A stretch of 64,000 bases of DNA from an uncultured Candidatus Saccharibacteria bacterium (GCA_964355335.1 CAYHDB010000002.1:3192-67191); one strand, 5' to 3'. Counted from the first letter of the stretch, positions 9,020 through 56,736 are shown. Notes: generated by a model not told the origin, from the sequence alone. Numbers and translations are program-made.

Positions 9020-9137
9020 AGATATATTTTAACACAAATAGTATCGATACCAATATACTAATTGTACTAATGATACGAATGGGACCCCGGCTTTGATTAG
9101 TATAATTAGTATTCATTTGTATATTAGCATCGATACC
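9020..9137. repeat. TACTAAT/ATTAGTA-heptad palindromic element (third heptad family, same architecture)
   Basis: agtatcgatacc..atactaattgtactaatgatacgaat | gggaccccggctttg | attagtataattagtattcatttgtatattagcatcgatacc. Outer ends tatcgatacc / catcgatacc are also inverted. Confidence 0.7.
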
Positions 9138-43718: not shown

Positions 43719-45329
43719 TTATTCCACGTGATACTTCCCTCTTATCTCTTTTATATTTTCCTCCTCAAGCTTGTCTTTTTTGTCTTTACCCTTATCTGCC
43801 AACGTTTTAAGCTCTTTTTCAGATAATTGTGAAAGTTCCGTTGCACGTTTCACCAGAAACATCTCCTCATTAAGCTCAGGTTTTTCAAGTACTTCTTCCA
43901 TCAAAGCATTTAAAATATGGCCAACCTTCGGTCCCGGTGTTACATGTGTAACCTCCATTATCTTATTTCCATCAATCTTGAGCATTCCGACAGACACCGG
44001 ATCTCTCATGACTTCCTCAAGCATTGCCTTATACTTTCTGAGTCTATAAGGGTTTTCCTTCGGTCTCCCGGTACCGATACGGTCACAAATACGAAGATTC
44101 ATCAGATCCCATACGTTGTCGTGGCCCACCTTAGCCAGTAAACGCCTGACGGCTGAAGGGGTAATTTGTTCGGTATCTGAGAAAAACATATGCCAACGTA
44201 CCATTTTCGATACTTTTTCTATTGTTTTCACGGGAAACCTCATCCTTTCTAGGATTTTCTTGGTTACCCGAGATCCTACAACCTCGTGGCCGTAAAATGT
44301 ATATTGTTTTGTTTCAGGTGAAACTCTCCGTGTTTCTGGCTTGGAAACATCATGAAAAAGAGCAGAAAGCCTTATTTCTAGAGACCATTTCTTGTCAGCG
44401 GCGTGTTGGAGCGACCTTAGGAGGTGTTCCCATACCTCAAAGGCATGAGCTTGATTTTGTTTTATACCTATTCCGGCCTCTAGCTCTGGCGCGATGTATT
44501 TCAAGATACCCAACTTTTGGCTAAGAATAATGCCAATCATAGGGTTGTCGGACATAAGAATCCTTATGAACTCGTCGCGAATTCTCTCCTGAGCAATACC
44601 CTTAAGTAAATCAGCGTATTTCTGTATTGCAACAGCAGTTTCGGATTCTATGGTGAAACTCAGCTCAGTGGAAATTCTAACGGCACGGAGCATTCTAAGG
44701 GCATCCTCGGCGAATCTATCATGAGGATCACCGACAGTGCGGAGTACTTTCTTGGAAATATCCTCTTGTCCTTTATAGAGGTCGGTCAGCTGTCCTTTAT
44801 AATATAACGCGCCGGTTTGGCGCATTTCTTTGTTGCTTCCTCCTCCCTCTCCCGCGCTGTAGGATACTACCGCTTGGTCGCGTTGCTCGGTCGCGCCTCG
44901 AACTGCATCCAAACCGACGTGTTCTATATCCAAAGCAATCGCATTCACAGTAAAATCCCGTCTTTGCAAGTCGTCCTCGAGTTTCTTGCTCCAAGATACA
45001 CTATCCGGCCTCCTTTTGTCGGAATAGTCCGATTCAAGCCGATAAGGAGTCACCTCCACAATCTTCAATGTCTCATCCGACGCTGTTTCGTTGACTACCC
45101 CCACTGTACCGTACTTGTTTTCGTAAAAAGTCTTTGGAAATAAGCCTATAATCTCCTCGGGAGTAGCATTCGTGGTGAAATCCCAGTCTTTCGGCTTTCT
45201 TTTTAGGAGTATGTCGCGGACACAGCCACCTATCAAATAAGCCTCAAATCCAGCCTTTTTTAAGGTTTCTGAGACTTTGGTGACTTCATCAGGTAAGTCA
45301 AAAGTAGTTTTGCCCTTTGTGATTGCCAT
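43719..45329 (-). CDS. cca: CCA-adding tRNA nucleotidyltransferase with C-terminal HD domain, carrying an in-frame ~30-aa GC-rich insertion
   Basis: Pol-beta NT motif ..LIGGCVRDILL... ..RRDFTVNAIA... HD ..ALFHDVSKP... Insert ..GATEQRDQAVVSYSAGEGGGSNKEMRQTGALYYKG.. interrupts the conserved ..D..G(G).DL....ir.vg.p.. block. Confidence 0.8.
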   Translation of the reverse strand: MAITKGKTTFDLPDEVTKVSETLKKAGFEAYLIGGCVRDILLKRKPKDWDFTTNATPEEIIGLFPKTFYENKYGTVGVVNETASDETLKIVEVTPYRLESDYSDKRRPDSVSWSKKLEDDLQRRDFTVNAIALDIEHVGLDAVRGATEQRDQAVVSYSAGEGGGSNKEMRQTGALYYKGQLTDLYKGQEDISKKVLRTVGDPHDRFAEDALRMLRAVRISTELSFTIESETAVAIQKYADLLKGIAQERIRDEFIRILMSDNPMIGIILSQKLGILKYIAPELEAGIGIKQNQAHAFEVWEHLLRSLQHAADKKWSLEIRLSALFHDVSKPETRRVSPETKQYTFYGHEVVGSRVTKKILERMRFPVKTIEKVSKMVRWHMFFSDTEQITPSAVRRLLAKVGHDNVWDLMNLRICDRIGTGRPKENPYRLRKYKAMLEEVMRDPVSVGMLKIDGNKIMEVTHVTPGPKVGHILNALMEEVLEKPELNEEMFLVKRATELSQLSEKELKTLADKGKDKKDKLEEENIKEIRGKYHVE

Positions 45330-45388
45330 TTCAAATATTTTATTACAACTTTCAGTTTTTCCCTAATTAGCGTATCATTGTGACAATT

Positions 45389-45460
45389 GCGCCCATGGTG
45401 AAACGGATATCATAAATGCCTTCGAAGCATTCGTTGTAGGTTCGAGTCCTACTGGGCGCA
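45389..45460 (+). tRNA. tRNA-Arg (anticodon TCG)
   Basis: Acceptor GCGCCCA/TGGGCGC. Anticodon arm AATGC-CTTCGAA-GCATT. T-arm GTAGG-TTCGAGT-CCTAC. Bidirectional terminator aaaaaacctccactgctggaggtttttt follows. Confidence 0.75.
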
Positions 45461-45565
45461 CACATAGCAAAAAACCTCCACTGCTGGAGGTTTTTTGCTA
45501 TGTGTGCGAGCCGGAGGTGTGGTCAATTTTTCCAAAACCGAACCCGTGTGATATACTTCTATGAC

Positions 45566-46249
45566 ATGCGAAAAGATAAGGAAAAAGCTCAAGTTTTGCG
45601 AAAGATCGGTAAAAGTTATAATGAAATAAAAGAGGAACTTGGTGTTCCGAAAGCTACTCTTTCCGATTGGTTCAGAGGACAAGCTTGGTCGAAAGAACTT
45701 TCAATAAAGCTCGTTGAGAAAGCAAGTGGCGCACACACAGTTCGAATTCAGGAACTGAATAGAATTCGCGGTGAAAACCTAAAAAAACTATACCTGGAGG
45801 CAGAAAATGAGGCGGTAGCAGAGTTTGAATTGCTTAAATATCACCCCCTGTTTATAGCCGGCTTAATGATTTACTGGGGCGAGGGCAACAAAGTATCGAA
45901 AAATCGTTGCTCGATTGCTAATACGGAACCTTTAATGATAAAGTTGTTCTTGTTATTTCTGAAAAATATTTGCAGGTTCAAGGGTTCCAAAATCAAGGCT
46001 TGGATTCTGATTTATCCGGATCTCGATGAAAAATTGTGTAAAAGTTTTTGGGTGGGAAAAACAGGTTTATCATATGAAAATTTTACAAAAAGTATGCTTA
46101 TTCAGGGTAAGCATAAAACAAACCGATTGTCATTCGGTGTTTGCAGTGTTGGGGTTTCTAGTGCATACTTAAAGCGAAAGATTTTGAAATGGATTGAATT
46201 ACTTGCTTTGGATTTGGTTAAAGAAAATTACATTGCGGGCATGGTTTAG
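45566..46249 (+). CDS. Hypothetical protein with N-terminal helix-turn-helix and a weak LAGLIDADG-like segment (..LFIAGLMIYWGEGNK..), between two tRNA genes
   Basis: Start MRKDKEKAQVLRKIGKSYNEIKEELGVPKATLSDWF (helix-turn-helix). The 3' end overlaps tRNA-Gly by ~15 nt. Confidence 0.4.
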   Translation: MRKDKEKAQVLRKIGKSYNEIKEELGVPKATLSDWFRGQAWSKELSIKLVEKASGAHTVRIQELNRIRGENLKKLYLEAENEAVAEFELLKYHPLFIAGLMIYWGEGNKVSKNRCSIANTEPLMIKLFLLFLKNICRFKGSKIKAWILIYPDLDEKLCKSFWVGKTGLSYENFTKSMLIQGKHKTNRLSFGVCSVGVSSAYLKRKILKWIELLALDLVKENYIAGMV

Positions 46250-46307
46250 CGGTATAACGTTACCTTGCCAAGGTAAAAATCCGGGTTCGACTCCCGGTGC
46301 CCGCACC
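46235..46307 (+). tRNA. tRNA-Gly (anticodon GCC)
   Basis: Acceptor GCGGGCA/TGCCCGC. D-arm GTT-TAGCGGTAT-AAC. Anticodon arm TTACC-TTGCCAA-GGTAA. T-arm CCGGG-TTCGACT-CCCGG. Confidence 0.8.
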
Positions 46308-46441
46308 GAAGTGAATACGAGGAAGGAGCAAGCCCCGATGGTTATCGGGGCGCCCGGGAGACGAAGCCCGATTGAGCCGAGCGTCTGAGCGAGCCAATCG
46401 GGGTACTGAAGCTGTAAGCTTCGATTCCCGGTGCCCGCACA
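46308..46441 (+). repeat. tRNA-linked structured repeat, copy 1: GC-rich hairpins, conserved module ccaatcggggtactgaagctgtaag, then a duplicate of the tRNA-Gly(GCC) T-loop/3' end (cttcgattcccggtgcccgcaca)
   Basis: Duplicate at 46419-46441 versus tRNA 3' gggttcgactcccggtgcccgcacc. Stem CCGATTG/CAATCGG. Confidence 0.7.
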
Positions 46442-46718
46442 GCGAGAAATATACAGGTCTAGCTTACCTAATTTGAAAAAAAGGAGATTCAGTTGACGAA
46501 GATATATCGAAAAGACATTTATCCTCTGTCAAATCAGGTCTCAGACAGACCCTTATTACTAGGCGTTTTGATCAAAACTGGGGATAACTATGTGGATGTG
46601 TGTATAAAAGACAGGACCAATTTGTCCGTTTATTTGTCTCTGTTTGTGTGAAAACGGCTCTAAATAAGCATTTTTTGTAAAAGACGGGCAAATATCGCTA
46701 ACACGAGATGGGTTTCAC

Positions 46719-47150
46719 GTGAAAGCACCATATATGTTTCCCAAGAAACAAAAGAGAACGAAAAAACAAGTTGTGGGATTATTAGGTGAGGATATTTCGG
46801 CTAGATTCCTTGAAGAAAAGGGATATTCCGTTGTTTGTAGGAACTATAGGAAGAAGTACGGAGAAATAGATATTATCGCGAGAAGAAAGGACAAAATATA
46901 TTTTATCGAGGTGAAGACAGTATCTAGAGATAACCTTGCGGACAAAGTGTCCGATTCTGCGGATTTGGCAAGACCTGAGGATAATGTCCACCCAGACAAG
47001 CTGAAACGTCTGTCTCGGACAATCCAGGCTTATTTGGCTGAGAATTCGATGGGGGAAGAGGATGAGTGGCAATTTGACGTTATCACTGTTCTGCTCGACG
47101 TGAAGAATAAAATTGCGAGAGTTAAAAGATTGGAGGATATAATTTTGTGA
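46719..47150 (+). CDS. yraN: YraN-family (UPF0102) endonuclease-like protein
   Basis: ..GEDISARFLEEKGYSVVCRNYRKKYGEIDIIARRKDKIYFIEVKT.. Signature GE(I/L)D(I/L)IA. Confidence 0.75.
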   Translation: MKAPYMFPKKQKRTKKQVVGLLGEDISARFLEEKGYSVVCRNYRKKYGEIDIIARRKDKIYFIEVKTVSRDNLADKVSDSADLARPEDNVHPDKLKRLSRTIQAYLAENSMGEEDEWQFDVITVLLDVKNKIARVKRLEDIIL

Positions 47151-47191
47151 TTTTTGGCTGTTTCAAATATCTGTGATAAGCTTTGTTTTCT

Positions 47192-47260
47192 GAAGTAAAT
47201 CGGGGCGTAGTATAGTGGTAGTATATACGCTTTGGGAGCGTACGGTCCGAGTTCGATTCT
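47192..47260 (+). tRNA. tRNA-Pro (anticodon TGG)
   Basis: Acceptor GGGGCGT/GCGCCCC. D-arm TATA-GTGGTAG-TATA. Anticodon arm TACGC-TTTGGGA-GCGTA. T-arm CCGAG-TTCGATT-CTCGG. Confidence 0.75.
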
Positions 47261-47545
47261 CGGCGCCCCGACAATAGCGAGCGAAGCGGCGATTGTCGGG
47301 GCGAGGAAGCGCTGGGGCGCTTCCGTCCGAGAATCGAAGCCTCGTTGAGCATACTTTTGAGCTTCTGAGCGACAAAAGTATCCAACGAGGGTACTGAAAC
47401 TGTAAGTTTCGATTCTCGGCGCAGTTTTTTGTGACGACATAAGTATATTCGCGGGCGATTCTTGGCCAGAAAAACCAATCGGGGTACCTGCCTACCGGCA
47501 GGCAGGCTGCTCCTGTAAGGAGAGATTCTCGTCGTCCCTACACGC
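47261..47545 (+). repeat. tRNA-linked structured repeat, copy 2 (two modules). The long hairpin ccgagaatcgaa-gcctcgttg-[ATACTTTTG..CAAAAGTAT]-caacgagg-gtactgaaactgtaag-tttcgattctcggcgc duplicates the tRNA-Pro T-loop/3' end. A second ccaatcggggtac..ctcctgtaaggagagattctc module follows.
   Basis: Duplicate at 47407-47422. Module at 47382-47406. The listed minus-strand ORFs 47030..47440 and 47122..47595 cover this region and are considered spurious. Confidence 0.7.
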
Positions 47546-47584
47546 AGGAAGCACTTGATATGTAAAAAGATAAAATCTTTTCGA

Positions 47585-48331
47585 TTAGACGGCAAGCGTG
47601 TTCCAAATAATATCGAATTCTTCTTTCTGCATCTGCACGATACTTTTGTTCTCGATCATGACCGTTATAATCGGCGCAATGATTTGCGTAATAATGACTC
47701 GGTACGGTGTAATGACAAGATTCGCCGTAAGTTTTGTTTGTTCAGGCAAGAATTTGATAGTCTGATTCGTGTTCAGTTCTATTTTCTTGTAATATCGTGC
47801 ACTGTCTGAATGCTGAAGAATGGTGCGGACGTTCAAGTTGTATTTTACGCGTCGTTCTATGAACTTAGCGAAGTATTCACGGTCTATATTCAAGAATTGC
47901 TCCATATCGGAGAGAATCATGTAGTCATCCCCGGGCTTCAGGTCGTCGAGAATTGTGTCGTAAACGGATTTCACACCGGCGACACCCTCGTAATATTTTA
48001 TAAAACTTCCACCAGGCTGCACGTTTTGCAAACTTTTGAGCTCGGGCAAGACATTATTAAATTTTTCACGTTTCAATTCCAAAATCTTCTCAAGCTTATC
48101 GGGACTTTCTGCAGAGTAGAATTGTTTGAGTCTTTTGATTTCTGTTACCATCAAACCTTTTGCTTTCAAACTCTCAAGTAGGGAATAAACAGTTGTTCGT
48201 TTTATCTGCGACTCTCGAGCGATTTTCAGCACGGTCGTTGAGCCCAAGGATAGGGTGGCAAGATACACTCGTGCTTCATTTTCGGTCAAGCCGATATCTT
48301 TCAGTATTTCAATAAAATCTAACTTTTGCAT
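47585..48331 (-). CDS. TrmB-family transcriptional regulator (paralog 2)
   Basis: ..LGLTENEARVYLATLSLGSTTVLKIARESQIKRTTVYSLLESLKAKGLM.. Confidence 0.75.
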   Translation of the reverse strand: MQKLDFIEILKDIGLTENEARVYLATLSLGSTTVLKIARESQIKRTTVYSLLESLKAKGLMVTEIKRLKQFYSAESPDKLEKILELKREKFNNVLPELKSLQNVQPGGSFIKYYEGVAGVKSVYDTILDDLKPGDDYMILSDMEQFLNIDREYFAKFIERRVKYNLNVRTILQHSDSARYYKKIELNTNQTIKFLPEQTKLTANLVITPYRVIITQIIAPIITVMIENKSIVQMQKEEFDIIWNTLAV

Positions 48332-48480
48332 AAAATGTCGATATATTTGACAACAAATTATCTATATAATTAAAGATACTTTACTGTATTCTACAATAGT
48401 TGTCGACATATTTGACATATTGTGAAATAAAATGCTAATATAGTCAATAGAAACGAGCGGAAGTTCCTTAACACAAATCT

Positions 48481-48508
48481 GGCTTTATTCAGGTGTGCCA
48501 TTGAACAC
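48481..48508 (+). promoter_or_regulatory. Conserved leader/operator motif GGCTTTAnnCAGGTGTGCCAnTGAACAC, copy 1 (16 nt before the ATG at 48525)
   Basis: Same motif at 51369-51397 (17 nt before the ATG at 51415) and, reverse-complemented, at 55773-55801 (13 nt before the minus-strand ATG at 55759). Contains GGTGT-N9-ACACC inverted repeat. Confidence 0.55.
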
Positions 48509-48524
48509 TAGAAGAAGGGTAAAT

Positions 48525-48884
48525 ATGAGACATAATAATTCCGGATTACAGTTGTCTGACGGTGAAGAGTGGTGTTCTCGAAGAGATGATGAGATCTTAA
48601 GTTGGACGGAGGCTACCGAAAAAGTTGCTCAAGATCCAACCTTACGTTTTCCTCATTATGACGATTTGATCAATGCGGAAGAGGAGGCTAAAAAAAATCC
48701 GGCACTACGGATAAAATTCAATGATCTGAGGTCCGGGGAGTATTGGAGTGTATCCTCTGAAAGGAATGACCCAAATTCGTCATTTGCATGTGTCGTTACC
48801 AAGGACCACCGACACTACGAGTCTCATCACGAAAAAAAACGTAAATATTGGGTAAGGTTTATTCGAAGAGTGGTTCAAACGTAA
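48525..48884 (+). CDS. Hypothetical protein (119 aa, His/Arg-rich)
   Basis: Start MRHNNSG set by the conserved upstream motif. No recognisable domain. Confidence 0.4.
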   Translation: MRHNNSGLQLSDGEEWCSRRDDEILSWTEATEKVAQDPTLRFPHYDDLINAEEEAKKNPALRIKFNDLRSGEYWSVSSERNDPNSSFACVVTKDHRHYESHHEKKRKYWVRFIRRVVQT

Positions 48885-48951
48885 AAATCATCAAACCGCA
48901 TCATTGTGATGCGGTTTTCCTTTTTTAAGTTGGTGTAGTACTCTACTAATA

Positions 48952-49254
48952 ATGTCCAAACAATTTATCAGAACAATTGAGGATTTCACGTGCGAACATT
49001 GTGGTGTCGATGTGAAAGGTAACGGCTACACCAATCACTGCCCGAAATGTTTGTGGAGTAAGCACGTGGATATAAATCCGGGGGATAGAGCAGAAAGGTG
49101 TGGGGGATTGATGGAACCCATCGGAGGAGCCAAGGTTAGTAAGGGATACATGCTTACGCACCGGTGCGTAAAATGTGGTTTTGAAAAAAGAAATTCGTTA
49201 AAACCCGAGGATGATTTCGATGTATTTCTAACTCTTGCCGGAAAGCTTTCGTAG
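48952..49254 (+). CDS. RNHCP-domain zinc-ribbon protein
   Basis: ..FTCEHCGVDVKGNGYTNHCPKCLWSKHVD.. and ..HRCVKCGFE.. Cys pairs and (R/T)NHCP motif. Confidence 0.5.
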   Translation: MSKQFIRTIEDFTCEHCGVDVKGNGYTNHCPKCLWSKHVDINPGDRAERCGGLMEPIGGAKVSKGYMLTHRCVKCGFEKRNSLKPEDDFDVFLTLAGKLS

Positions 49255-49327
49255 GCGCTCGGTTCCTCTCAACCTTTTCAAAGGGGGAGATTGAGAGGGG
49301 GTGAGTAGAACATTTTATAACCACCTC

Positions 49328-50146
49328 TCATTCCTCTTTTTGGAAAGTAGGGGAGGTAGAGACATCTGATTTTAGCGAAGCGTCGAGCCGTTTCGCCTCT
49401 GCCCACGCCAGCTCGTAGATTTTTTTCATAGCGTCCGCGATTTCCGCGCTTTCGATGATGACTCCTAGCTTCTCGCGCCACGAGGCAATCATGATTTTGT
49501 TGTCGTAGATGTTTATTTCTGGGGAAAAATAATATTTGTCCGGCGGGACAAACGCTATCTCGCGTTTTTCTTCCGCGTCGAGCGCCCTACGCTCTTCACC
49601 CATTGGCGTTTTTGGAGCGATGGCGCGAATAGCAATATTTTTCTCCGCTCGGCGTTTGTAATACGAGGGAAAATAATTTGGCAGGCCCTTGTGCATGTCG
49701 TCTACTGTTGCATATGCTCGAATCGACTCGGTCGAGGTGAGCGTATCTTCATACACATGCCGTAATCCTTCCGTGCCCTCGTAAAATTTTATTTTCGGTC
49801 GGTTCTGTTTGGCATGAAGCAAGTTTAATTCCGGAATCAAAGCTTCGGCTTTTTTGATATGCTCGGATGTCTGCTCCGCCACTTTTTTCAAGAATGCAAT
49901 GATCGCCTCCGGCGGTTCGGCGGCAAATTCCGATTTTGGTTCCTTGCCGGAAATGGTAACGAGTCCTTTGTTTGCTAGGGAACTCAAAATGTCGTAGCCG
50001 GTCGTTCTATTGATGCCAGCCTTTCGGCTGATTTGAGTGACCGTGCCTTTGCCGAGTTCCAGCAATGCAACGTAAACAGTCGTCTCCTTTTCGCCGAAAC
50101 CAAAACTCCGCAAAGTCATTTTCAATTGTTCGTTCGGGTCTTTCAT
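49328..50146 (-). CDS. TrmB-family transcriptional regulator (paralog 3)
   Basis: ..FGFGEKETTVYVALLELGKGTVTQISRKAGINRTTGYDILSSLANKGLV.. Confidence 0.75.
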   Translation of the reverse strand: MKDPNEQLKMTLRSFGFGEKETTVYVALLELGKGTVTQISRKAGINRTTGYDILSSLANKGLVTISGKEPKSEFAAEPPEAIIAFLKKVAEQTSEHIKKAEALIPELNLLHAKQNRPKIKFYEGTEGLRHVYEDTLTSTESIRAYATVDDMHKGLPNYFPSYYKRRAEKNIAIRAIAPKTPMGEERRALDAEEKREIAFVPPDKYYFSPEINIYDNKIMIASWREKLGVIIESAEIADAMKKIYELAWAEAKRLDASLKSDVSTSPTFQKEE

Positions 50147-50620
50147 GTTTTGTTTTTCCTCCCCTTCTTGCGAAGGAGGGGAAAGAGGGGTGGTTACGAC
50201 CCATCCTCAATCCTCCCCTTCGAAAGGGGAGGAGAATTAAGGTGAAGTATACTCCCAATCCATTTTGTGTCAATCTTTTTCGACAAAAATATGCTCATAT
50301 TCTTAAATATATTGATAAATATGGCGTTATTAAACATATTATTGACGATATTTATTGACAATAGGGTCTAGAAATGTTACGATTATGTCAGAAAGATACG
50401 AATCGTCTCGACAGGCTCGAGATAAACAAGTTCTTTGAAACCTGCTTGCTGAAGTCATAGGTTTAGTCATCTTCGACAGATGAATAGTGCGCGGGTTCGA
50501 AACCGCCCACTTATCATCTGTCGAGTGAGGCATGTGTCATCCTGAATCGGCTTGAAAACCCGAGCAGAATTGAAAAGTGTAAATCCGCATTTTTCTTCAC
50601 GAAACGGATGAACCAAATTT

Positions 50621-51232
50621 ATGACAACAACCAAAACCGCCGTCGCGTCCCAAACTCCGATCGACTTTCCGGTGTGGAAGACGATTAAGGTAGGTACATT
50701 TAAGAGTATGGACGACGCGGAGAATGCTCTCCGAGCAGCCAAAGTCCTCTTCGAGGAATTTGGTTCAGTACGCCCACTCCTCCGTCATCCGATGTTCAAA
50801 CTTGAGATGGTCGAGAGGGAAATCGATCTCATCAAGGTTACCGGAGAAGAGCTTGGGGTGGAGTCGGAGGTATTCTACTCTCGAGATCTACATACGAAGA
50901 TTGGTGGTGCACTGAGATTTTGTCCTGACGAAACAGCTTTTCAGCTTCGTCTGCAATATCTTGATCAACCCGAGAGTGAGAAGTTGGTTATTTACTCGCA
51001 ACCTTTTCCTCTCGATGACACTGATTCACTTCGAGGCGATTGGACTTGCGGCGGGTTATTTAGTGTCAACAATTATCGCCCACTACCAATATCAAGTGGC
51101 CGCCTTGTCCAAGATGAATCTGGACAAGTATTGAAACTCCCATACACCCTGAATTTAGGGCACGAGTCGACTGGTCAGTACAAAAATATGACACTAGTCC
51201 TTGTGAAGCCTCGTAGGGAGAAATGGCAGTAG
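50621..51232 (+). CDS. Hypothetical protein (203 aa), moderately GC-rich. N-terminus paralogous to the next gene.
   Basis: MTTTKTAVASQTP.. versus MNTTKTAATQPKV.. for the 51415 ORF. Confidence 0.4.
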   Translation: MTTTKTAVASQTPIDFPVWKTIKVGTFKSMDDAENALRAAKVLFEEFGSVRPLLRHPMFKLEMVEREIDLIKVTGEELGVESEVFYSRDLHTKIGGALRFCPDETAFQLRLQYLDQPESEKLVIYSQPFPLDDTDSLRGDWTCGGLFSVNNYRPLPISSGRLVQDESGQVLKLPYTLNLGHESTGQYKNMTLVLVKPRREKWQ

Positions 51233-51414
51233 GTCTGCCACGCGCATAAGAGAAGGCGCATCACAAGCTTCTCACTTCCCATCGCACATCAAAACTGCGA
51301 TGGGAAATCTATCAAGCTCGCAACAGTGAAGTTGTTGGCTTGAAGATTTAGTTCTTTACAACCAAATAGGCTTTAAGCAGGTGTGCCATTGAACACCAGT
51401 TCAGAAAGGTAACT

Positions 51415-52236
51415 ATGAATACGACCAAAACTGCCGCTACTCAACCCAAAGTTAAACTCTGGGGACCAATAATCGCAGACCTCGCTCTTCAGCGGTTTGA
51501 AGATATTTTGGAGGAGGGGAATTCTGAACATATCATGAATATTCTGGAAAACCCAGACCGGTATTCCTCTTCCGGCCCATATTTTGCGGCGAATTGTTTT
51601 CTTCGGTTGCCATCCAGACTACAACAGGGCAACAAACACATTACTGACGAAATGCTCGAGGCTTCCATTGTCGGGTTCATTGAGTCATTCAATGAAATCT
51701 ATTGGGAGGAATGGCTTGAATGGACATCGCTCGTTATCGGCAGTGGTGCGGGGTGGAGGCACAGTCTATATCCCGAGGACCAAACGCGAGACACGATTCT
51801 GAAAAAATATCTCAAAACACTTTATTGCAAAGTTTTTGAGACGGTACTCAAGCATCTGGATAGCCCTTGGTTGAAAAGCAAGAATCACCAAGGAATGTTG
51901 GGAGTCTACGTCGGTTCCTTCATGAAATATAGCCAATGGGATGAGTGCCCCGCTGATTATGGCATTACCAAAGAGGTGCTGCCACTCTGTAATTACATAT
52001 ACGCGACTTACCTTCCTCGATTGGAAATTGGAAGGTTCTCTTCTCGAGTTGCCTATCTCGAATGGAAACTCAAAGGGTACGAACTCCGATTCAAGGAGGA
52101 AGGAAAGGTCACTATATGGAATGGTGAGGACTTGAATGGGACGACTCTCGATGAAGTCGTCGAAAGGCTTCAGAAGGAGTGGGAGGCTTGCAAGTCTGAA
52201 TTGGAAGAAGCTCGCAAGCAGGAAAATCGGCAGTAG
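51415..52236 (+). CDS. Hypothetical protein (273 aa, Trp-rich) preceded by the conserved leader motif
   Basis: Motif ggctttaagcaggtgtgccattgaacacc 17 nt upstream. Confidence 0.4.
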   Translation: MNTTKTAATQPKVKLWGPIIADLALQRFEDILEEGNSEHIMNILENPDRYSSSGPYFAANCFLRLPSRLQQGNKHITDEMLEASIVGFIESFNEIYWEEWLEWTSLVIGSGAGWRHSLYPEDQTRDTILKKYLKTLYCKVFETVLKHLDSPWLKSKNHQGMLGVYVGSFMKYSQWDECPADYGITKEVLPLCNYIYATYLPRLEIGRFSSRVAYLEWKLKGYELRFKEEGKVTIWNGEDLNGTTLDEVVERLQKEWEACKSELEEARKQENRQ

Positions 52237-52413
52237 GCCAGAACACTTACCTTCGGAAAAGTAAGTAATGGGTAAATCTGCCGAGGGCTTCGGAGAAATG
52301 CCTATCACAAACTCCAATCCTACACAGAAATGTGTGGGATTTTATTTTGAAAAAAATACGGAAACAGCAAGGTTCGACCTTTTCCCGATTTAAGGTTGAG
52401 CCTTCGAAAACTT

Positions 52414-53625
52414 TTATTTATTTTTAGAATCCAGTTCGTCGGTTAAGAGTTTTGTGAGAGTTGGCAAGGTTTGCTCGTCGAAGTTTTTTGAGAATACCGA
52501 AAGATCGGTGGCAAAGAGGGAATTGAGTGTAAGGCCTGTTTCTTCGGACAGGATACGGTTGATATGAGGAATAGAAATGGCATCGAGTTCGCGGTCGGAT
52601 GTCATCTTTGCGTCGGTCGAGGTGACGATGATGCCGAGAAGTTTTCCATTACCGCTGATAGCTCCACCACCTGATGAGCCGTGCTGGGCGACGGGACTTC
52701 CTCCGAGACCAAATGCGTCCAATTCCTGGACACCTTCTTTAAATGTGTAGAGTTTGCCAATATTAACCACGCTAGATACGGCATAAAGCTCTCGCTGGAT
52801 TGCGATTCCGCCCAAAAACCCAGCTGGGTAACCGGCAAGAATCACCTGGTTTCCCGAATCTATGTCCATCTCTGTGCTGTCGGGTGATATAGATGGGTAA
52901 CTTATCGGTAAATTGATGTCGGAGTTTGTGCTCCCTGTGATTTGAAGAAGGGCAAAATCATTCTCTCCTGTCCCTGTCGGTTTTTGACTAGTAATTTGCT
53001 GATAATTTTTCTCCATCCACTTTTTCGAGATATAAAATACTTTCAATGTGTAAGAGGGGACTGCGGGGCTTCCCGTACGGGCAATGCAGTTTAGAAAGTT
53101 TTTTTGTCGATAATTTTGGATAAGAAGATATTGGGCGACGTGGGCGTTTGTAAGGATAATTCCTCGTGGGTCAATGATGACTCCCGAGCCGGACAAGGGT
53201 TCGAATAGGCCACCTGTCGTTGAGGTACAGAGAATGTTTACAATTGCCTTGCGGGCCATTGTGTTTATTTCAGAAAAATTTGGAGGTGGGGGTGCAATGA
53301 TCGGTGTAGGCGTTGAAACTAGGGGAGTACTCGTCGGGGTATTTCGAACTTCACTTTTAATGTCGGTATTTATTTCAACCTTAGGTTTCGGACTGATCGG
53401 TAAAGTTTTTTTCGGTTTTATTTCAGTCGAAGTAGTCGTCGCAGTCTTTTCCTCTGATTGTGTTTGTTTTTCCTTAGCGGTAGTGGTAGCTATCGTGTCA
53501 GTAATCACAGTTTTGATCGGTCCCGTGTTCTCAATGTTTGATACAGAAACGGAAGGGGATGTCGCTGAGATAGTTGCGATGCCAATCAACACTAAAATTA
53601 TTCCGATAAGCTTTGCAAGCATCAT
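52414..53625 (-). CDS. Secreted trypsin-like (S1/DegP-like) serine protease without PDZ domain
   Basis: Signal-anchor. Thr/Pro-rich linker. Catalytic His ..ILTNAHVAQY.., Ser ..AQHGSSGGGAI.. Confidence 0.65.
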   Translation of the reverse strand: MMLAKLIGIILVLIGIATISATSPSVSVSNIENTGPIKTVITDTIATTTAKEKQTQSEEKTATTTSTEIKPKKTLPISPKPKVEINTDIKSEVRNTPTSTPLVSTPTPIIAPPPPNFSEINTMARKAIVNILCTSTTGGLFEPLSGSGVIIDPRGIILTNAHVAQYLLIQNYRQKNFLNCIARTGSPAVPSYTLKVFYISKKWMEKNYQQITSQKPTGTGENDFALLQITGSTNSDINLPISYPSISPDSTEMDIDSGNQVILAGYPAGFLGGIAIQRELYAVSSVVNIGKLYTFKEGVQELDAFGLGGSPVAQHGSSGGGAISGNGKLLGIIVTSTDAKMTSDRELDAISIPHINRILSEETGLTLNSLFATDLSVFSKNFDEQTLPTLTKLLTDELDSKNK

Positions 53626-53772
53626 ATAATTCTATCACGATGAATTGTTGCTACACCTGTATTTTTCTGTTAGGATTTTGAAGTTATCGCCTTCGCGGCT
53701 AGCGGGCTTCGCCCGCCGTAGCTCGCTTCGGCGAGCGAAGGCCCCACTTCACATAAAGTTTCGCGGGGCAAA

Positions 53773-53846
53773 GCGGGATTAGTTTAATGGTAAAATAACA
53801 GTTTTCCAAACTGTGGTTGGGAGTTCGATTCTCCCATCCCGCACAT
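53773..53846 (+). tRNA. tRNA-Gly (anticodon TCC)
   Basis: Acceptor GCGGGAT/ATCCCGC. Anticodon arm ACAGT-TTTCCAA-ACTGT. T-arm GGGAG-TTCGATT-CTCCC. Terminator ccgctcctgctcggagcgtttttt at 53851-53885. Confidence 0.8.
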
Positions 53847-53886
53847 CGTAGAAAAAACCGCTCCTGCTCGGAGCGTTTTTTCTTGA

Positions 53887-54150
53887 TGTGCGGGATAGAA
53901 GACGCGGGGGCGTCTTCGTGGGAGAATCGAAGCCCGATTGAGTCGAGCTTCGGCGCGAGCCAATCGGGGTACTGCTCCTGTAAGGAGAGATTCTCATTCT
54001 GTGACGACAAGAGTTTAGTCGCGGGCGATTCTCATTTTTCTGGCGTGGGAGAATCGAAGCCTCGTTGAGCTTATTTTGCGAGCCTTTCGAGGCAAAATAA
54101 CCAACGAGGGTACTGAAACTGTAAGTTTCGATTCTCCCATCCCGCACAAC
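53887..54150 (+). repeat. tRNA-linked structured repeat, copy 3 (two modules). It starts with an inverted copy of the tRNA 3' end (tgtgcgggat) and ends with gggagaatcgaa-gcctcgttg-[TTATTTTGC..GCAAAATAA]-caacgagg-gtactgaaactgtaag-tttcgattctcccatcccgcaca.
   Basis: Duplicate of the tRNA-Gly(TCC) T-loop/3' end at 54126-54148. 22-mer gagaatcgaagcctcgttgagc identical to copy 2. The listed ORFs over this region are considered spurious. Confidence 0.7.
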
Positions 54151-54212
54151 TTCACAAATAAAAAACGCACACAACAATTACGTTGTGTGCGGTTCGCGGA
54201 CATGCCGCCTTT

Positions 54213-54953
54213 TCAGAAGATGAGCGAAAAGCCCGTTGATACCATTACGTCGCTTGTACGACGGACGAAGTAGTTGGCGGAAACGATATTCATCGTCAGC
54301 CGTTTCGAGATGTTCCAGTTCAGTCCCGCGTTTCCGCGGAAAAAGAAACCAGTGTCGCTCCCGAGTGTTCCGGTATCGTATACGCCGGCGAGGGAAGTGC
54401 TGACGCTCAGCCGGTCTTTCCAGAAGGTTATGCTCTTGCTGGCCGTGAGGCTGAAGAGATTGCCACCCTGGAATCCGCTCTCGGGCATAGTGACATAGTT
54501 CTCGTACCCGAGAGTGAGCGAAAGATGTTTGAAGTCTTTGCCTAGCCGAATGTGTGAGTAGATGATGTCTCCCACGCCGAGTGTGAACGCTTTCGGTTCG
54601 TCGAAGTAGGTGACGCCGACGTGAGCCGTGAGACCTTTTATCGTGCCGTTCCATCCTATTCCATAATCGACTTCATTCCCTAAGCTTCCGTCATCCCACT
54701 TTCCCTTGAAACTTCGTGAGTTCCAAAGGTCAAGGTAGATTCCACTTTTATGAGAGAGGAATAGATCAGTTTGTGCGACAGGAGCTTCGCTCAGTACACT
54801 TCCTATGCTATTCAGGTATTTGTTCGCGATGACAGTCGAAACTGTGACGCTGAAGGGTTGTTGTTGGCCTGCCTCGGCAGGTAAATTTTCCTCTGCCTCG
54901 GTCCGGTTAAGGGCGAGCAAAGCCGTTAGTAGGTTGACAATGAGCTTTTTCAT
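54213..54953 (-). CDS. Signal-peptide protein with beta-barrel-like alternating pattern and C-terminal Phe (outer-membrane-protein-like). GC-rich, probably horizontally acquired.
   Basis: MKKLIVNLLTALLALN.. signal. Ends ..STGFSLIF. Local GC about 52% versus ~40% background. Confidence 0.4.
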   Translation of the reverse strand: MKKLIVNLLTALLALNRTEAEENLPAEAGQQQPFSVTVSTVIANKYLNSIGSVLSEAPVAQTDLFLSHKSGIYLDLWNSRSFKGKWDDGSLGNEVDYGIGWNGTIKGLTAHVGVTYFDEPKAFTLGVGDIIYSHIRLGKDFKHLSLTLGYENYVTMPESGFQGGNLFSLTASKSITFWKDRLSVSTSLAGVYDTGTLGSDTGFFFRGNAGLNWNISKRLTMNIVSANYFVRRTSDVMVSTGFSLIF

Positions 54954-55093
54954 ACAGGTATCAGTCTTTTTCGGTTGTGCAGTTTGACTTCTATGGACCC
55001 ACGATACACGTCATGAGTCCAATAAAGTGGAGAATTTAAGGTTAATTCTCCGGAACCGAGAGTTTTACGATAACCCCCGAACCGAGCAAAGCA

Positions 55094-55759
55094 CTATTCC
55101 TGAACGAGGTATTTGAGAAGCGCAGCCCAGTTCTTGGCCCTGACCGTGTCAGATCGCTTGCTGTACTCTTCGTACGCTAGCGTCTTCGAGAGGTCCTTTG
55201 GATCGAATCGCCCGACCCAGTTCCTCGAATTGGAGAGGAGGACCTTGCTGCCCTCAACCGTGAACGGCGTGGGGATGCTCTCGTGCCTGTTGAAGACGTC
55301 GAAGCAGGCGGAGGCGGGGTGCGAGTGGTGGTCACTGTCGGTGAAGACGGCGACATACTTCGCGCACGTCTTGACTGCGGCCAGTAGTCCGATGAAGATA
55401 CCGACTGGCATCTCCTTGCCGACGAGCGACGCTCCACCTGGACCCTGTTCCTGCCGTGAGGTGGGCACAAGAAGGTCGGTCAGAACGACATCGAAGTTGG
55501 GGTAGGTCGTCGCTTGCTCGTTCGCCACCTTCTCAGCCGCGAAGTAGTCTGCCTTCTTCGCCTCGTCGTCTGAACGATAAGGGTTGAAGTTGCCGAACTG
55601 GCTCTTGAGAGCGGACGAAGCCCCCTCGTGGTCGAACTGTGGCGTGAGCAGCTCCTGCGCCTCGTCGTAGGTGCCGACAACTGTGAGGTCGTGGCCTTTT
55701 AACTGCGCAATGGCGGCGCTTCGATTAATATCGCTATCGTCGAATACAAGGATTTTCAT
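55094..55759 (-). CDS. Hypothetical protein with receiver-like N-terminus (MKILVFDDSD..). Strongly GC-rich (about 57%), probably horizontally acquired, yet preceded by the local conserved leader motif.
   Basis: Composition read directly. Many overlapping alternative-frame ORFs, typical of high GC. Confidence 0.4.
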   Translation of the reverse strand: MKILVFDDSDINRSAAIAQLKGHDLTVVGTYDEAQELLTPQFDHEGASSALKSQFGNFNPYRSDDEAKKADYFAAEKVANEQATTYPNFDVVLTDLLVPTSRQEQGPGGASLVGKEMPVGIFIGLLAAVKTCAKYVAVFTDSDHHSHPASACFDVFNRHESIPTPFTVEGSKVLLSNSRNWVGRFDPKDLSKTLAYEEYSKRSDTVRAKNWAALLKYLVQE

Positions 55760-55986
55760 AGTTTTCTGTACTGGTGTTCAGTGGCACACCTGCGTAAAGC
55801 CGTACGGTTTGGTTGACAGGGTACTGTCTTTTATCTGCAATAATTTTCCCACCCATTTGCAATTATGTCGAATAAATGTTGAAATAAGTATAACAATATT
55901 CAATAATACGGCTCTAATACGTTGTAATTGAGTTAAAAAATGTCAATTTTATTGACATTTGCGATAATTCTGGCTACACTAGGAAC

Positions 55987-56736
55987 ATGATAGATACCTT
56001 AAAGCTGTTTGGGATTAAGGAAAAGCCCGCGCAGGTATACAATGCATTATTAATTTTAGGTTCGTCTTCGGTCATGGATGTCGCTAAGAGAGCAGGTCTT
56101 AAACGTCCGATGGTGTATATCTATCTCGAAGAACTTTTGGGTGATGGATTTGTGCAGAAAATTACCATTGGTAAAAAAGAATACTATCAAGCGGTTTCGC
56201 CAAAATTTCTAGAGACAAAACTCGAACAAAATCTTTCACAATTAAAAAAGGAAATGCCGGAGTTGGAGTTGCTCCACGAGCAAGGTCAAGGTAGGCCTAA
56301 AGTTTCAGTTTTTGAGGGAGAGGAGGGGGTCAACCTAGTTTATGAAGAAATAAGAAAAACTAAAGAGTTGATGTTTTGGTCCGATCTTTTCGCGGTCGAA
56401 AAACTTTTTCCCGACACGTATCGTAAGATTAATCAGGCGACAATTGAAAACAGTATTTATACTCGAGAGATTATTGCCGATACGGCGGATGCACGGGCGA
56501 GCGCACGACGATGGGTGGTGACAGCGGGGGAACATTATGACTCGCGACTGGCCACGGGACCAATTTATAATGACAGCGTTATTTACGACAATGTCGTGGC
56601 ATTTTTCCGTCTTCAACAGCAAAACTTATTCGTTGTCCGCATTGAGGACCCGACTATTGCTATAACAATGAAAACTATTTACGAGATGGCTTGGCAGGTG
56701 GCAAAGCCATACAGAATTACGGGAACAAAGAAATAA
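55987..56736 (+). CDS. TrmB-family transcriptional regulator (paralog 4)
   Basis: ..GIKEKPAQVYNALLILGSSSVMDVAKRAGLKRPMVYIYLEELLGDGFV.. Terminator aaaacccaccgaatggtgggttttgtg follows. Confidence 0.7.
   Translation: MIDTLKLFGIKEKPAQVYNALLILGSSSVMDVAKRAGLKRPMVYIYLEELLGDGFVQKITIGKKEYYQAVSPKFLETKLEQNLSQLKKEMPELELLHEQGQGRPKVSVFEGEEGVNLVYEEIRKTKELMFWSDLFAVEKLFPDTYRKINQATIENSIYTREIIADTADARASARRWVVTAGEHYDSRLATGPIYNDSVIYDNVVAFFRLQQQNLFVVRIEDPTIAITMKTIYEMAWQVAKPYRITGTKK

Follow-up and report, generated by a model that had tools for sequence, protein, structure and literature searches.

The tRNA genes of the window and the elements behind them

The DNA analysed here is a 64,000-nt stretch from an uncultured Candidatus Saccharibacteria bacterium (GCA_964355335.1, CAYHDB010000002.1:3192-67191; 'the window' refers to this whole stretch), in which a small element encoding no protein, about 110–170 nt long, lies behind three of four tRNA genes and contains the 3′ part of the tRNA that it follows in two copies, one antisense and one sense. 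The tRNA genes are these.

45389–45461, plus strand: tRNA-Arg(TCG), intact (ARAGORN, Rfam)
46235–46307, plus strand: tRNA-Gly(GCC), host of locus A (ARAGORN; Rfam tRNA 70.3 bits); the copied part runs from T-loop to discriminator, 46286–46305
47201–47272, plus strand: tRNA-Pro(TGG), host of locus B, intact (ARAGORN, Rfam)
53773–53844, plus strand: tRNA-Gly(TCC), host of locus C, intact (ARAGORN, Rfam)

None of the four genes encodes CCA. The original prediction had placed one copy of the element at each of tRNA-Gly(GCC), tRNA-Pro and tRNA-Gly(TCC); all three loci do carry it, but locus C has two cores and locus B has an extra 5′-truncated copy, giving four full copies and one truncated copy in the window. 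An 18-mer (GGGTACTGAARCTGTAAG) occurs at 46401, 47389 and 54108, with a three-mismatch variant at 53967 (four matches against 0.03 expected). A covariance model (R1) built from 123 family members gave strong matches at 54046–54139 (91 bits), 47326–47420 (88 bits), 53919–53998 (67 bits) and 46353–46432 (66 bits), and also picked up a degenerate remnant at 47477–47533. A further weak R1 match on the minus strand (9030–9124, 15 bits, E = 0.08) is AT-rich, lacks the conserved junction bases and is probably due to chance.

Anatomy of a copy

On the tRNA strand a copy comprises, from 5′ to 3′, a spacer, an optional segment 'a', a hairpin H, an antisense arm, a core (P2, junction and P3) and a sense duplicate. 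The spacer, which separates the tRNA from the rest of the element, forms a hairpin in loci B and C, and 'a' is an antisense copy of the acceptor 3′ strand, present in the window only at these two loci (47297–47303 and 53890–53896). Hairpin H (8–10 bp, ending ..YCGU) precedes the arm at all three loci. The arm is the complement of the T-stem 3′ strand and the T-loop and ends ..TCGAA; as predicted, it is an exact reverse complement of the T-arm, 12–13 nt long and 100% complementary to the host tRNA in the window. The core is a three-way junction made up of the long P2 hairpin (CC plus 6 bp, with a variable extension hairpin whose GA-rich tip is often GAGCGAAGCGA), the junction strand GGGUACUG between P2 and P3 (GUACUG), and P3, 4 bp capped by a UGUAA-type loop. 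The sense duplicate, 3′ of the core, is a direct copy of the host tRNA from T54 to the discriminator; the copy of the tRNA 3′ end that had been claimed was found at 95% identity in locus A and at 100% over 22 nt in locus C, and as a truncated copy (47408–47422) in locus B. The direct repeats in the window lie 134–303 nt from each other. Single-sequence folds of the window copies are more stable than those of shuffled sequences (z −3.3 to −6.0). The tip GAGCGAAGCGA (tandem G.A plus GAA loop) also occurs at the ends of spacer hairpins (for example 47279–47289) as well as at P2 extension tips in many loci, and may be a shared module for protein binding or tertiary contact. The individual features are listed below.

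Locus A
46332–46351, plus strand: hairpin H of copy A, GCCCCGAT-GGTT-ATCGGGGC (sequence reading, fold)
46353–46432, plus strand: copy A (R1 65.6 bits, E = 2e-15), with arm CCGGGAGACGAA (46354–46365), P2 and its hairpin, junction GGGTACTG (46401–46408), P3 AAGC-TGTAA-GCTT (46409–46421) and the first part of the sense duplicate
46420–46440, plus strand: sense duplicate (DR2) of copy A, T-loop to discriminator plus 1 nt (21 nt, 95% identical to 46286–46306)

Locus B
47264–47303, plus strand: long hairpin of acceptor 3′ strand and trailer, tip GAGCGAAGCG, and 'a' CGGGGCG (47297–47303) (inverted repeat of 15 nt, 93% complementary)
47304–47326, plus strand: hairpin H of copy B, AGGAAGCGC-TGGG-GCGCTTCCGT (sequence reading, fold)
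47326–47420, plus strand: copy B (R1 87.6 bits), with arm CCGAGAATCGAA (47327–47338), P2 TCGTTG/CAACGA and extension hairpin, GGGTACTG (47389), P3 and truncated sense duplicate TTCGATTCTCGGCGC (47408–47422)
47430–47466, plus strand: fragment of core family 3 (...TCGCGGG|CGATTCT) with its own T-loop/T-stem copy CGATTCTTGG (full-length family 3 stands behind an identical tRNA-Pro in related locus L246)
47475–47542, plus strand: 5′-truncated older family-1 copy, CCAATCG-GGGTAC, a 20-nt hairpin, CTG-CTCC-TGTAA-GGAG (weak R1 match 47477–47533; repeats)

Locus C
53836–53896, plus strand: long hairpin of acceptor 3′ strand, terminator-like hairpin (53859–53875 plus T-run) and 'a' GCGGGAT (53890–53896) (terminator scan; inverted repeat of 27 nt)
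53897–53919, plus strand: hairpin H of locus C, AGAAGACGC-GGGG-GCGTCTTCGT (sequence reading, fold)
53919–53998, plus strand: copy C1 (R1 67 bits), with arm GGGAGAATCGAA, P2 CGATTG/CAATCG, GGGTACTG, P3 CTCC-TGTAA-GGAG and a degenerate T-loop/T-stem copy AGATTCTCAT
54000–54036, plus strand: family-3 fragment between two GATTCTCATT repeats (53989–53998 and 54027–54036) (repeat finder)
54046–54139, plus strand: copy C2 (R1 91.3 bits, E = 3e-22), with a second arm GGGAGAATCGAA (54047–54058), P2 TCGTTG/CAACGA and extension hairpin, GGGTACTG (54108) and P3 AAAC-TGTAA-GTTT
54127–54148, plus strand: sense duplicate (DR2) of copy C2, from the T-loop of tRNA-Gly(TCC) to discriminator plus 2 nt (22 nt, 100% identical to 53824–53845)

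At locus B the arm of the full copy is 100% complementary both to tRNA-Pro (47252–47263) and to the duplicate (47408–47419). Copies of the tRNA-Pro T-loop/T-stem start at 47410, 47456 and 47523, the identity of the 3′-end copies falling with distance from the tRNA (100%, then 91%, then 82–84%), and a decayed tRNA-Pro 3′ end (47524–47542, 84%) closes the truncated copy. The sequence TGTGACGAC..TCGCGGGCGATTCT, present at loci B and C (47430 and 54000), is the fragment of a different core family, described further below. A 20-nt perfect hairpin at 47487–47506 (CCTGCCTACC/GGCAGGCAGG) splits the GGGTAC^CTG junction of the truncated copy, and a block resembling it (CTGCCTACCGCCTGCCTGCCGGTAGGCAGG) stands ahead of one copy in another genome (L047).

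Around these loci, tRNA-Arg(TCG) is element-free (45389–45508); behind it stands a long, palindromic hairpin resembling a terminator (GCGCACACATAGCAAAAAACCTCC..GGAGGTTTTTTGCTATGTGTGCG), the stem of which takes in the final 5 nt of the tRNA. The tRNA cluster adjoins a gene for a CCA-adding enzyme (43719–45329, minus strand; PolyA_pol and HD domains). Directly 5′ of tRNA-Gly(TCC), at 53676–53772, there are short GC-rich hairpins (GCGGGCTTCGCCCGC, GCTCGCTTCGGCGAGC) that are not clearly beyond shuffled sequences (z −1.8), and a similar GC-rich leader lies ahead of tRNA-Gly(GCC) in one relative (L241).

Structure and covariation of the core

The proposed structure was examined on the 123 sequences, in which 88.6% of cells are paired. 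The covariation score is 0.46, against 0.146 for shuffled alignments (0 of 500 reached 0.46) and at most 0.135 when partners were slid, and double compensatory changes were found in 25 of the 31 pairs, so that the stem covariation claimed from the window copies is borne out statistically. For P3 the paired cells amount to 99.8% and comprise four types of base pair, and H is a real hairpin at 74 of 86 loci. RNAalifold was also run on the family alignment. G.U pairs outnumber A.C in both P2 (55 versus 16) and its extension (38 versus 18), which indicates that the fold belongs to the tRNA-carrying strand. Compensatory changes beyond those of controls, together with strand-specific G.U pairs, are what would be expected of a structured RNA in general, although in principle the folded molecule could be single-stranded DNA of the tRNA strand, as the same signal is expected from a DNA hairpin. 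In divergent members, taken by R1 from an independent set in which no seed pattern was imposed, GUACUG, the GUAA-type loop and GAA are kept and the rest varies.

Distribution of the family

Scanning one genome per GTDB species with an exact pattern (GAAGCC, 25–55 nt, GGGTACTG, 4 nt, TGTAAG) gave at least 117 matching loci, all but a handful in genomes labelled Patescibacteria; carriers among the matches listed include Paceibacteria, Taylor-, Zambryski-, Nomura-, Kaiser- and Lloydbacteria and metagenome-assembled genomes labelled Saccharibacteria. The window is itself from an organism of this kind, its contig belonging to a groundwater-type metagenome assembly. Among these listed matches a same-strand tRNA or transfer-messenger RNA (tmRNA) ends 27–132 nt upstream (median 71) of 86 of the 124 pattern instances, or 86 of 108 once 16 instances cut by contig ends are left out. 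The 86 tRNA-linked copies cover 17 amino-acid specificities and 35 tRNA/anticodon classes (tmRNA counted), including one tmRNA. Seven of the 124 instances sit behind another element of the same kind, in tandem array, and 13 have no ARAGORN tRNA within 600 nt, although one of these (L110) follows an intron-containing tRNA that ARAGORN missed. Two instances, in the non-Patescibacteria genomes L060 and L078, are plainly due to chance and were discarded. The search proposed with the original prediction thus found the module to be widespread, almost always behind a tRNA 3′ end and with arms that fit that tRNA, and compensatory changes extend far beyond the copies in the window.

These findings dispose of the weakest alternative, a recent local segmental duplication or chance confined to this genome, which can be dismissed even though the P2 domains of copies B and C2, and likewise of A and C1, are 85–88% alike: at least 117 species-level genomes carry the element, the arms differ from tRNA to tRNA and only 0.03 matches were expected by chance.

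Some further observations were made on these loci. In the intron-containing case (L110:3968–4260) the tRNA is split by an insertion of about 220 nt right after CCCTGT in the anticodon loop, with a family-1 element behind it; this looks like the tRNAs with group I introns at position 35/36 reported for Patescibacteria (PMC13011429). At eight loci (L008, L016, L067, L068, L087, L095, L100 and L108; L095 is the copy behind tmRNA) a 14-nt mini-hairpin with a covarying stem and a TACT loop (for example AAGCGTACTCGCGG) lies inside the T-loop part of the duplicate. No polymorphism was found among the near-identical contigs L001–L003, which come from the same strain.

What the arms match

The left arm mirrors the T-loop variants of different tRNAs (TTCGAAT, TTCGAGT, TTCAAGT and TTCGATT). 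It is complementary at 9 or more of 10 positions to upstream tRNA positions 56–65 at 61 of 85 loci and to the downstream duplicate at 21 of 85, and where the two are compared directly the real tRNA is the better match at 52 loci and the worse at none. It had been predicted that the copies have an outer stem fitting the host tRNA; the arm is indeed complementary to the tRNA, but since it tracks the real tRNA better than the duplicate, 'outer stem' is only a partial description. At G.U pairs or mismatches of the tRNA T-stem (35 positions, 27 of them informative) the arm corresponds to the complement of the 3′ strand at 22 positions and to the 5′ strand at 5, so the arm is an antisense copy of the tRNA 3′ part and no remnant of a second tRNA. 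The same 22 of 27 positions rule out the arm being a copy of tRNA 5′ strands, as in a degenerate tandem tRNA.

Segment 'a' was found at 35 of 85 loci (about 40%) and an intact acceptor in the duplicate at 47 of 85, and the two are negatively associated (both 12, 'a' only 23, duplicate only 35, neither 15). At the 35 loci with 'a', this segment completes a near-perfect palindrome that begins with the acceptor 3′ strand and continues through the trailer and a hairpin (terminator-like in many); it has 713 Watson–Crick against 20 G.U pairs. In relatives of the window 'a' stands behind 10 of 24 element-bearing tRNAs but only 7 of 196 element-free ones (control queries match 4 of 220); that it is part of ordinary tRNA terminators in this lineage was therefore rejected. 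At one locus (L241) 'a' fits a mutated tRNA remnant and not the duplicate.

The arm would have two competing partners, the duplicate, with which it would form a tRNA-like acceptor/T helix capped by the junction, and the pre-tRNA 3′ half, and the data favour conservation of the latter. Candidate explanations for the matching of arm and tRNA are slow adaptation aided by the near-universal T-loop, templated correction of a long quasi-palindrome, and homologous recombination between genomes anchored on the conserved tRNA.

Empty sites, nested copies and other cores

Using the neighbouring CCA-adding enzyme as anchor, we gathered 80 related loci (910 kb), in which the gene order Arg, Gly-GCC, Pro, ..., Gly-TCC is preserved and R1 finds just 14 copies. 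One relative (L242) has a tRNA-Gly(GCC) identical to that of the window followed by an empty site, homology picking up again 3′ of the duplicate found in the window. Conversely, two others (L244 and L255) have a family-1 element behind the orthologous tRNA-Arg, which is bare in the window. In this unbiased set, an antisense copy of the T-arm lies within 140 nt of about 11% of the 220 tRNAs, while controls gave 2 matches. The direct repeats (some 20–59 nt long) always have their left edge at the T-loop, and their right edge usually lies 0–5 nt past the tRNA, although at four loci (L053, L069, L074 and L119) the repeat runs 19–44 nt further past it. Nested, tandem and truncated copies also occur.

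At L074 there are two copies with cores 98% identical and the same left flank (four tRNA-Ser bases, trailer hairpin, 'a', H and arm) but different downstream duplicates, from which it follows that in this case the left part moved together with the unit and the duplicate is the target's own.

The same scaffold, consisting of 'a', H, antisense arm, core and sense duplicate, is used by two other core families. Family 2 has GAAAGGCUUUUCC..GAGAUGGAAAAGCACCUG plus a hairpin with a GUA-type loop (L241, L245, L246 and L044) and family 3 has GAACGCC..GGCGGUGCCCAGAC, a hairpin and AGUCGCGGG (L245, L246 and L087). L246 carries the exact tRNA-Pro of the window followed by family 3, where the window has family 1 and then a family-3 remnant, and we infer that the core was replaced while spacer and 'a' were retained. 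Within a genome, P2 domains at different tRNAs are 81–98% identical in 10 of 25 pairs, the 95th percentile between genomes being 0.83 (Mann–Whitney p = 0.012), and the H hairpins of same-genome copies with similar P2 domains are unrelated, which argues that copying or homogenisation of cores between loci does not depend on the scaffold. In L241 and L242 the order behind tRNA-Pro is AAAATAAATAA, then a hairpin ending CCGT/CTGT, then an older tRNA-Pro represented by its 3′ half, from the anticodon loop on; as the current tRNA-Pro has a different acceptor stem, this suggests that the 5′ part of the gene was replaced.

Interpretation

Two of the three identities first proposed, a non-autonomous mobile element and a tRNA-linked structured RNA, fit these results and are not mutually exclusive, whereas the third, decayed attR ends, is unsupported. 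Taking the two together, we think, at a probability of roughly 0.55, that the copies belong to a previously undescribed, Patescibacteria-wide class of small non-autonomous insertion elements at tRNA and tmRNA 3′ ends that encode a structured RNA on the tRNA strand. Such an element would be gained beside the T-loop/3′ end of a tRNA gene with duplication of the tRNA 3′ part, so that, we propose, the essential single-copy tRNA would stay intact. It would be transcribed by read-through from the tRNA promoter, and the RNA would fold either on itself, arm and duplicate closing the core in a tRNA-like acceptor/T helix, or onto the pre-tRNA 3′ half. Selection would act on the RNA fold, and cores would be copied or homogenised between the tRNA loci of one genome.

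Several points weigh against such an insertion element. No transposition intermediate, enzyme or transcript was seen. The basis for mobility is presence/absence, repeats and nesting, and ancient residency with frequent loss could give the same picture; gene conversion would account for high within-genome core identity with unrelated H hairpins just as well as transposition would. In the sole clear recent duplication (L074) the arm was not re-matched to its new site. A terminator-like hairpin lies between tRNA and element in 49 of 86 spacers, including that of tRNA-Gly(TCC) (53859–53875), and transcription of the element is therefore not assured. Nor is there support for the duplicate keeping its pairing with the arm, as 31 of the 43 differences between duplicate and tRNA break a pair, so the closing stem is not clearly under selection. 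Finally, the seed pattern forces some alignment columns to be invariant and so inflates their apparent invariance.

Since the data favour conservation of the pairing of arm and pre-tRNA, the main rival is a role serving the host, which we regard as possible though not probable. The element would then be a cis element of the pre-tRNA whose arm pairs with the upstream tRNA 3′ half in read-through transcripts, forming a long hairpin that extends the terminator stem, and whose core recruits a factor for the processing, termination or destruction of read-through precursors, acting as an RNA-based device for tRNA 3′-end maturation or quality control in RNase-poor genomes. The better fit of the arm to the real tRNA (52 loci to none), the near-perfect palindrome from acceptor to 'a' at 35 loci, the linkage of 'a' to elements (10 of 24) and not to ordinary tRNA terminators (7 of 196), the fit of 'a' to the mutated tRNA remnant in L241 and the conservation of the structure across the phylum all speak for it. 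However, only about 11% of the tRNAs in relatives carry any element, and orthologous tRNAs manage without one; a device that is needed would not be expected to occur in truncated, nested and decaying copies; the same arm layout is used with at least three unrelated cores; and no cofactor was identified.

If, instead, the element is mobile, a more specific proposal, which we hold to be doubtful, is that of an RNA-only, tRNA-guided mobile module. Its arm would recognise the T-loop, near-universal in tRNAs and tmRNA, it would insert beside the tRNA with duplication of the tRNA 3′ end, and its arms would be rewritten from the gene or transcript of the new host tRNA, the junction serving either as a new ribozyme or as a point of attachment for a tRNA-processing enzyme. 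Taken as a new small catalytic RNA that is guided by its arm to the T-loop and spreads, in the manner of a protein-less intron or a short interspersed nuclear element, by a reverse reaction or by reverse transcription and recombination, the idea becomes improbable. The junction bases GUACUG, the GUAA loop and GAA are kept in divergent members found without the seed pattern, the repeats have the geometry of target-primed insertion, with one edge fixed at the T-loop and the far edge variable, and the nearly universal T-loop part of the arm would let any tRNA or tmRNA be a target. On the other hand, the element matches none of the ribozyme or intron families, the putative junction after P3 lacks a conserved nucleotide and no reverse transcriptase lies nearby; the duplicate has a genomic trailer and not CCA, and was therefore not copied from mature tRNA; and the arm of L074 was carried over unchanged.

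A very unlikely alternative is that the copies are decayed attR junctions of integrase islands or prophages in tRNA genes, the core being a conserved attP arm. As in such junctions, the tRNA 3′ end is duplicated from the T-loop on, with tRNA 3′ direct repeats at both ends (21–22 nt in the window, and at most loci), tmRNA is also a target, a few loci have long identical repeats reaching 30–44 nt past the tRNA (L069 and L119), and L241 and L242 show other partial duplications of tRNA-Pro. Against this, the copies are uniform in size with a conserved left boundary (H), covary as RNA does with a G.U bias and have a tRNA-specific antisense arm. A cognate integrase was looked for, and among the genes within 2.5 kb of the 117 loci listed there is no recurrent integrase, reverse transcriptase or transposase, nor is integrase or cargo present between or beside the repeats in the window; the recurrent neighbours are housekeeping genes, such as those for LepA, RbfA, YraN and the CCA-adding enzyme. 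The 2.9 million viral contigs of IMG/VR contain no match to the specific pattern, and no attP was found there (plasmid collections were not searched). A loose 14-base pattern did hit 120 loci in the viral contigs, which the covariance model rejected as chance.

If the insertion-element reading is correct, the copies represent a new and abundant class of structured RNA that is absent from Rfam, with at least three core types on one tRNA-matched scaffold. They are also a natural case of an element in which the 3′ part of the host tRNA is present in antisense as well as in sense. Patescibacteria account for a large part of bacterial diversity, and although their genomes are tiny and their tRNA genes present in single copy, many of them maintain dozens of these elements. 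The finding bears on tRNA genes as landing sites, on how minimal genomes tolerate or use selfish RNA and on whether an unknown chemistry of RNA-guided insertion or tRNA processing exists. For annotation, the duplicates are open to misreading as tRNA fragments or island boundaries.

Comparison with known systems

The element belongs to no family tested in this analysis. Rfam 15 (cmscan, E ≤ 1) returned only tRNAs and chance matches from 44000–56000 of the window and from L241, L245 and L246, a search that covers families 2 and 3 as well. Hammerheads, IS91 (GTTC target), IS200/IS605, IS110 bridge RNA, retrons and retroviral primer-binding sites were considered and set aside, as each has what we take to be a defining feature that does not fit; for the hammerhead this is the order of junction strand lengths, judged by reading alone. 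No GC-rich hairpin with a U-run, as in an intrinsic terminator, lies 3′ of the duplicate in the window, and no promoter-like site was seen ahead of the copies there. A literature search, including one with literal sequences, found no description of the element, the nearest related report being that of group I introns in tRNA anticodon loops (PMC13011429).

The element resembles tyrosine-integrase islands and prophages in lying at the 3′ part of tRNA or tmRNA genes, in its duplicate starting from the T-loop, in leaving the tRNA intact and in having older duplicates that decay downstream. It differs from them in being only about 110–170 nt long, with no integrase or cargo, in its conserved RNA structure and antisense tRNA copy, and in its absence from viral contigs. 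With REP/BIME, ERIC, Correia/NEMIS, RUP and Rickettsia RPE it has in common that it is small, non-coding, multi-copy, foldable and patchy among relatives, and we also count as shared that these repeats are often co-transcribed with a neighbouring gene. Unlike bacterial miniature inverted-repeat transposable elements and related repeats, it occurs in one orientation at tRNA 3′ ends, its inverted arms and terminal repeats vary with the host tRNA, its flanking repeat is long and variable in length (0 to 44 nt past the tRNA) and its core is a multi-helix junction with conserved junction bases.

In complete copies the ends give an acceptor-like 7-bp stem stacked on a T-stem and one hairpin stands for the tRNA body, as in tRNA-like RNAs (the tmRNA domain, YrlA, mascRNA and viral tRNA-like structures). 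In place of the T-loop, however, there are an extended helix and a three-way junction, and the stems copy the adjacent tRNA; ARAGORN and Rfam call just the four canonical tRNAs in the window, and the element is not called by ARAGORN or by the Rfam tRNA, tmRNA or YrlA models. Ribozymes that flank tRNAs (HDV-like theta ribozymes and the hammerheads by phage tRNAs) are likewise conserved structured RNAs 3′ of tRNA genes, but the element matches no ribozyme model and is parted from its tRNA by a spacer that is often terminator-like. Finally, the group I introns of Patescibacteria tRNAs interrupt the anticodon loop at position 35/36 and have been validated as self-splicing (PMC13011429), whereas the element leaves the tRNAs of the window intact and uninterrupted and matches no Rfam intron model, Intron_gpI included; the two are nevertheless alike in being protein-less structured RNAs, tied to tRNA genes and patchily distributed in the same phylum.

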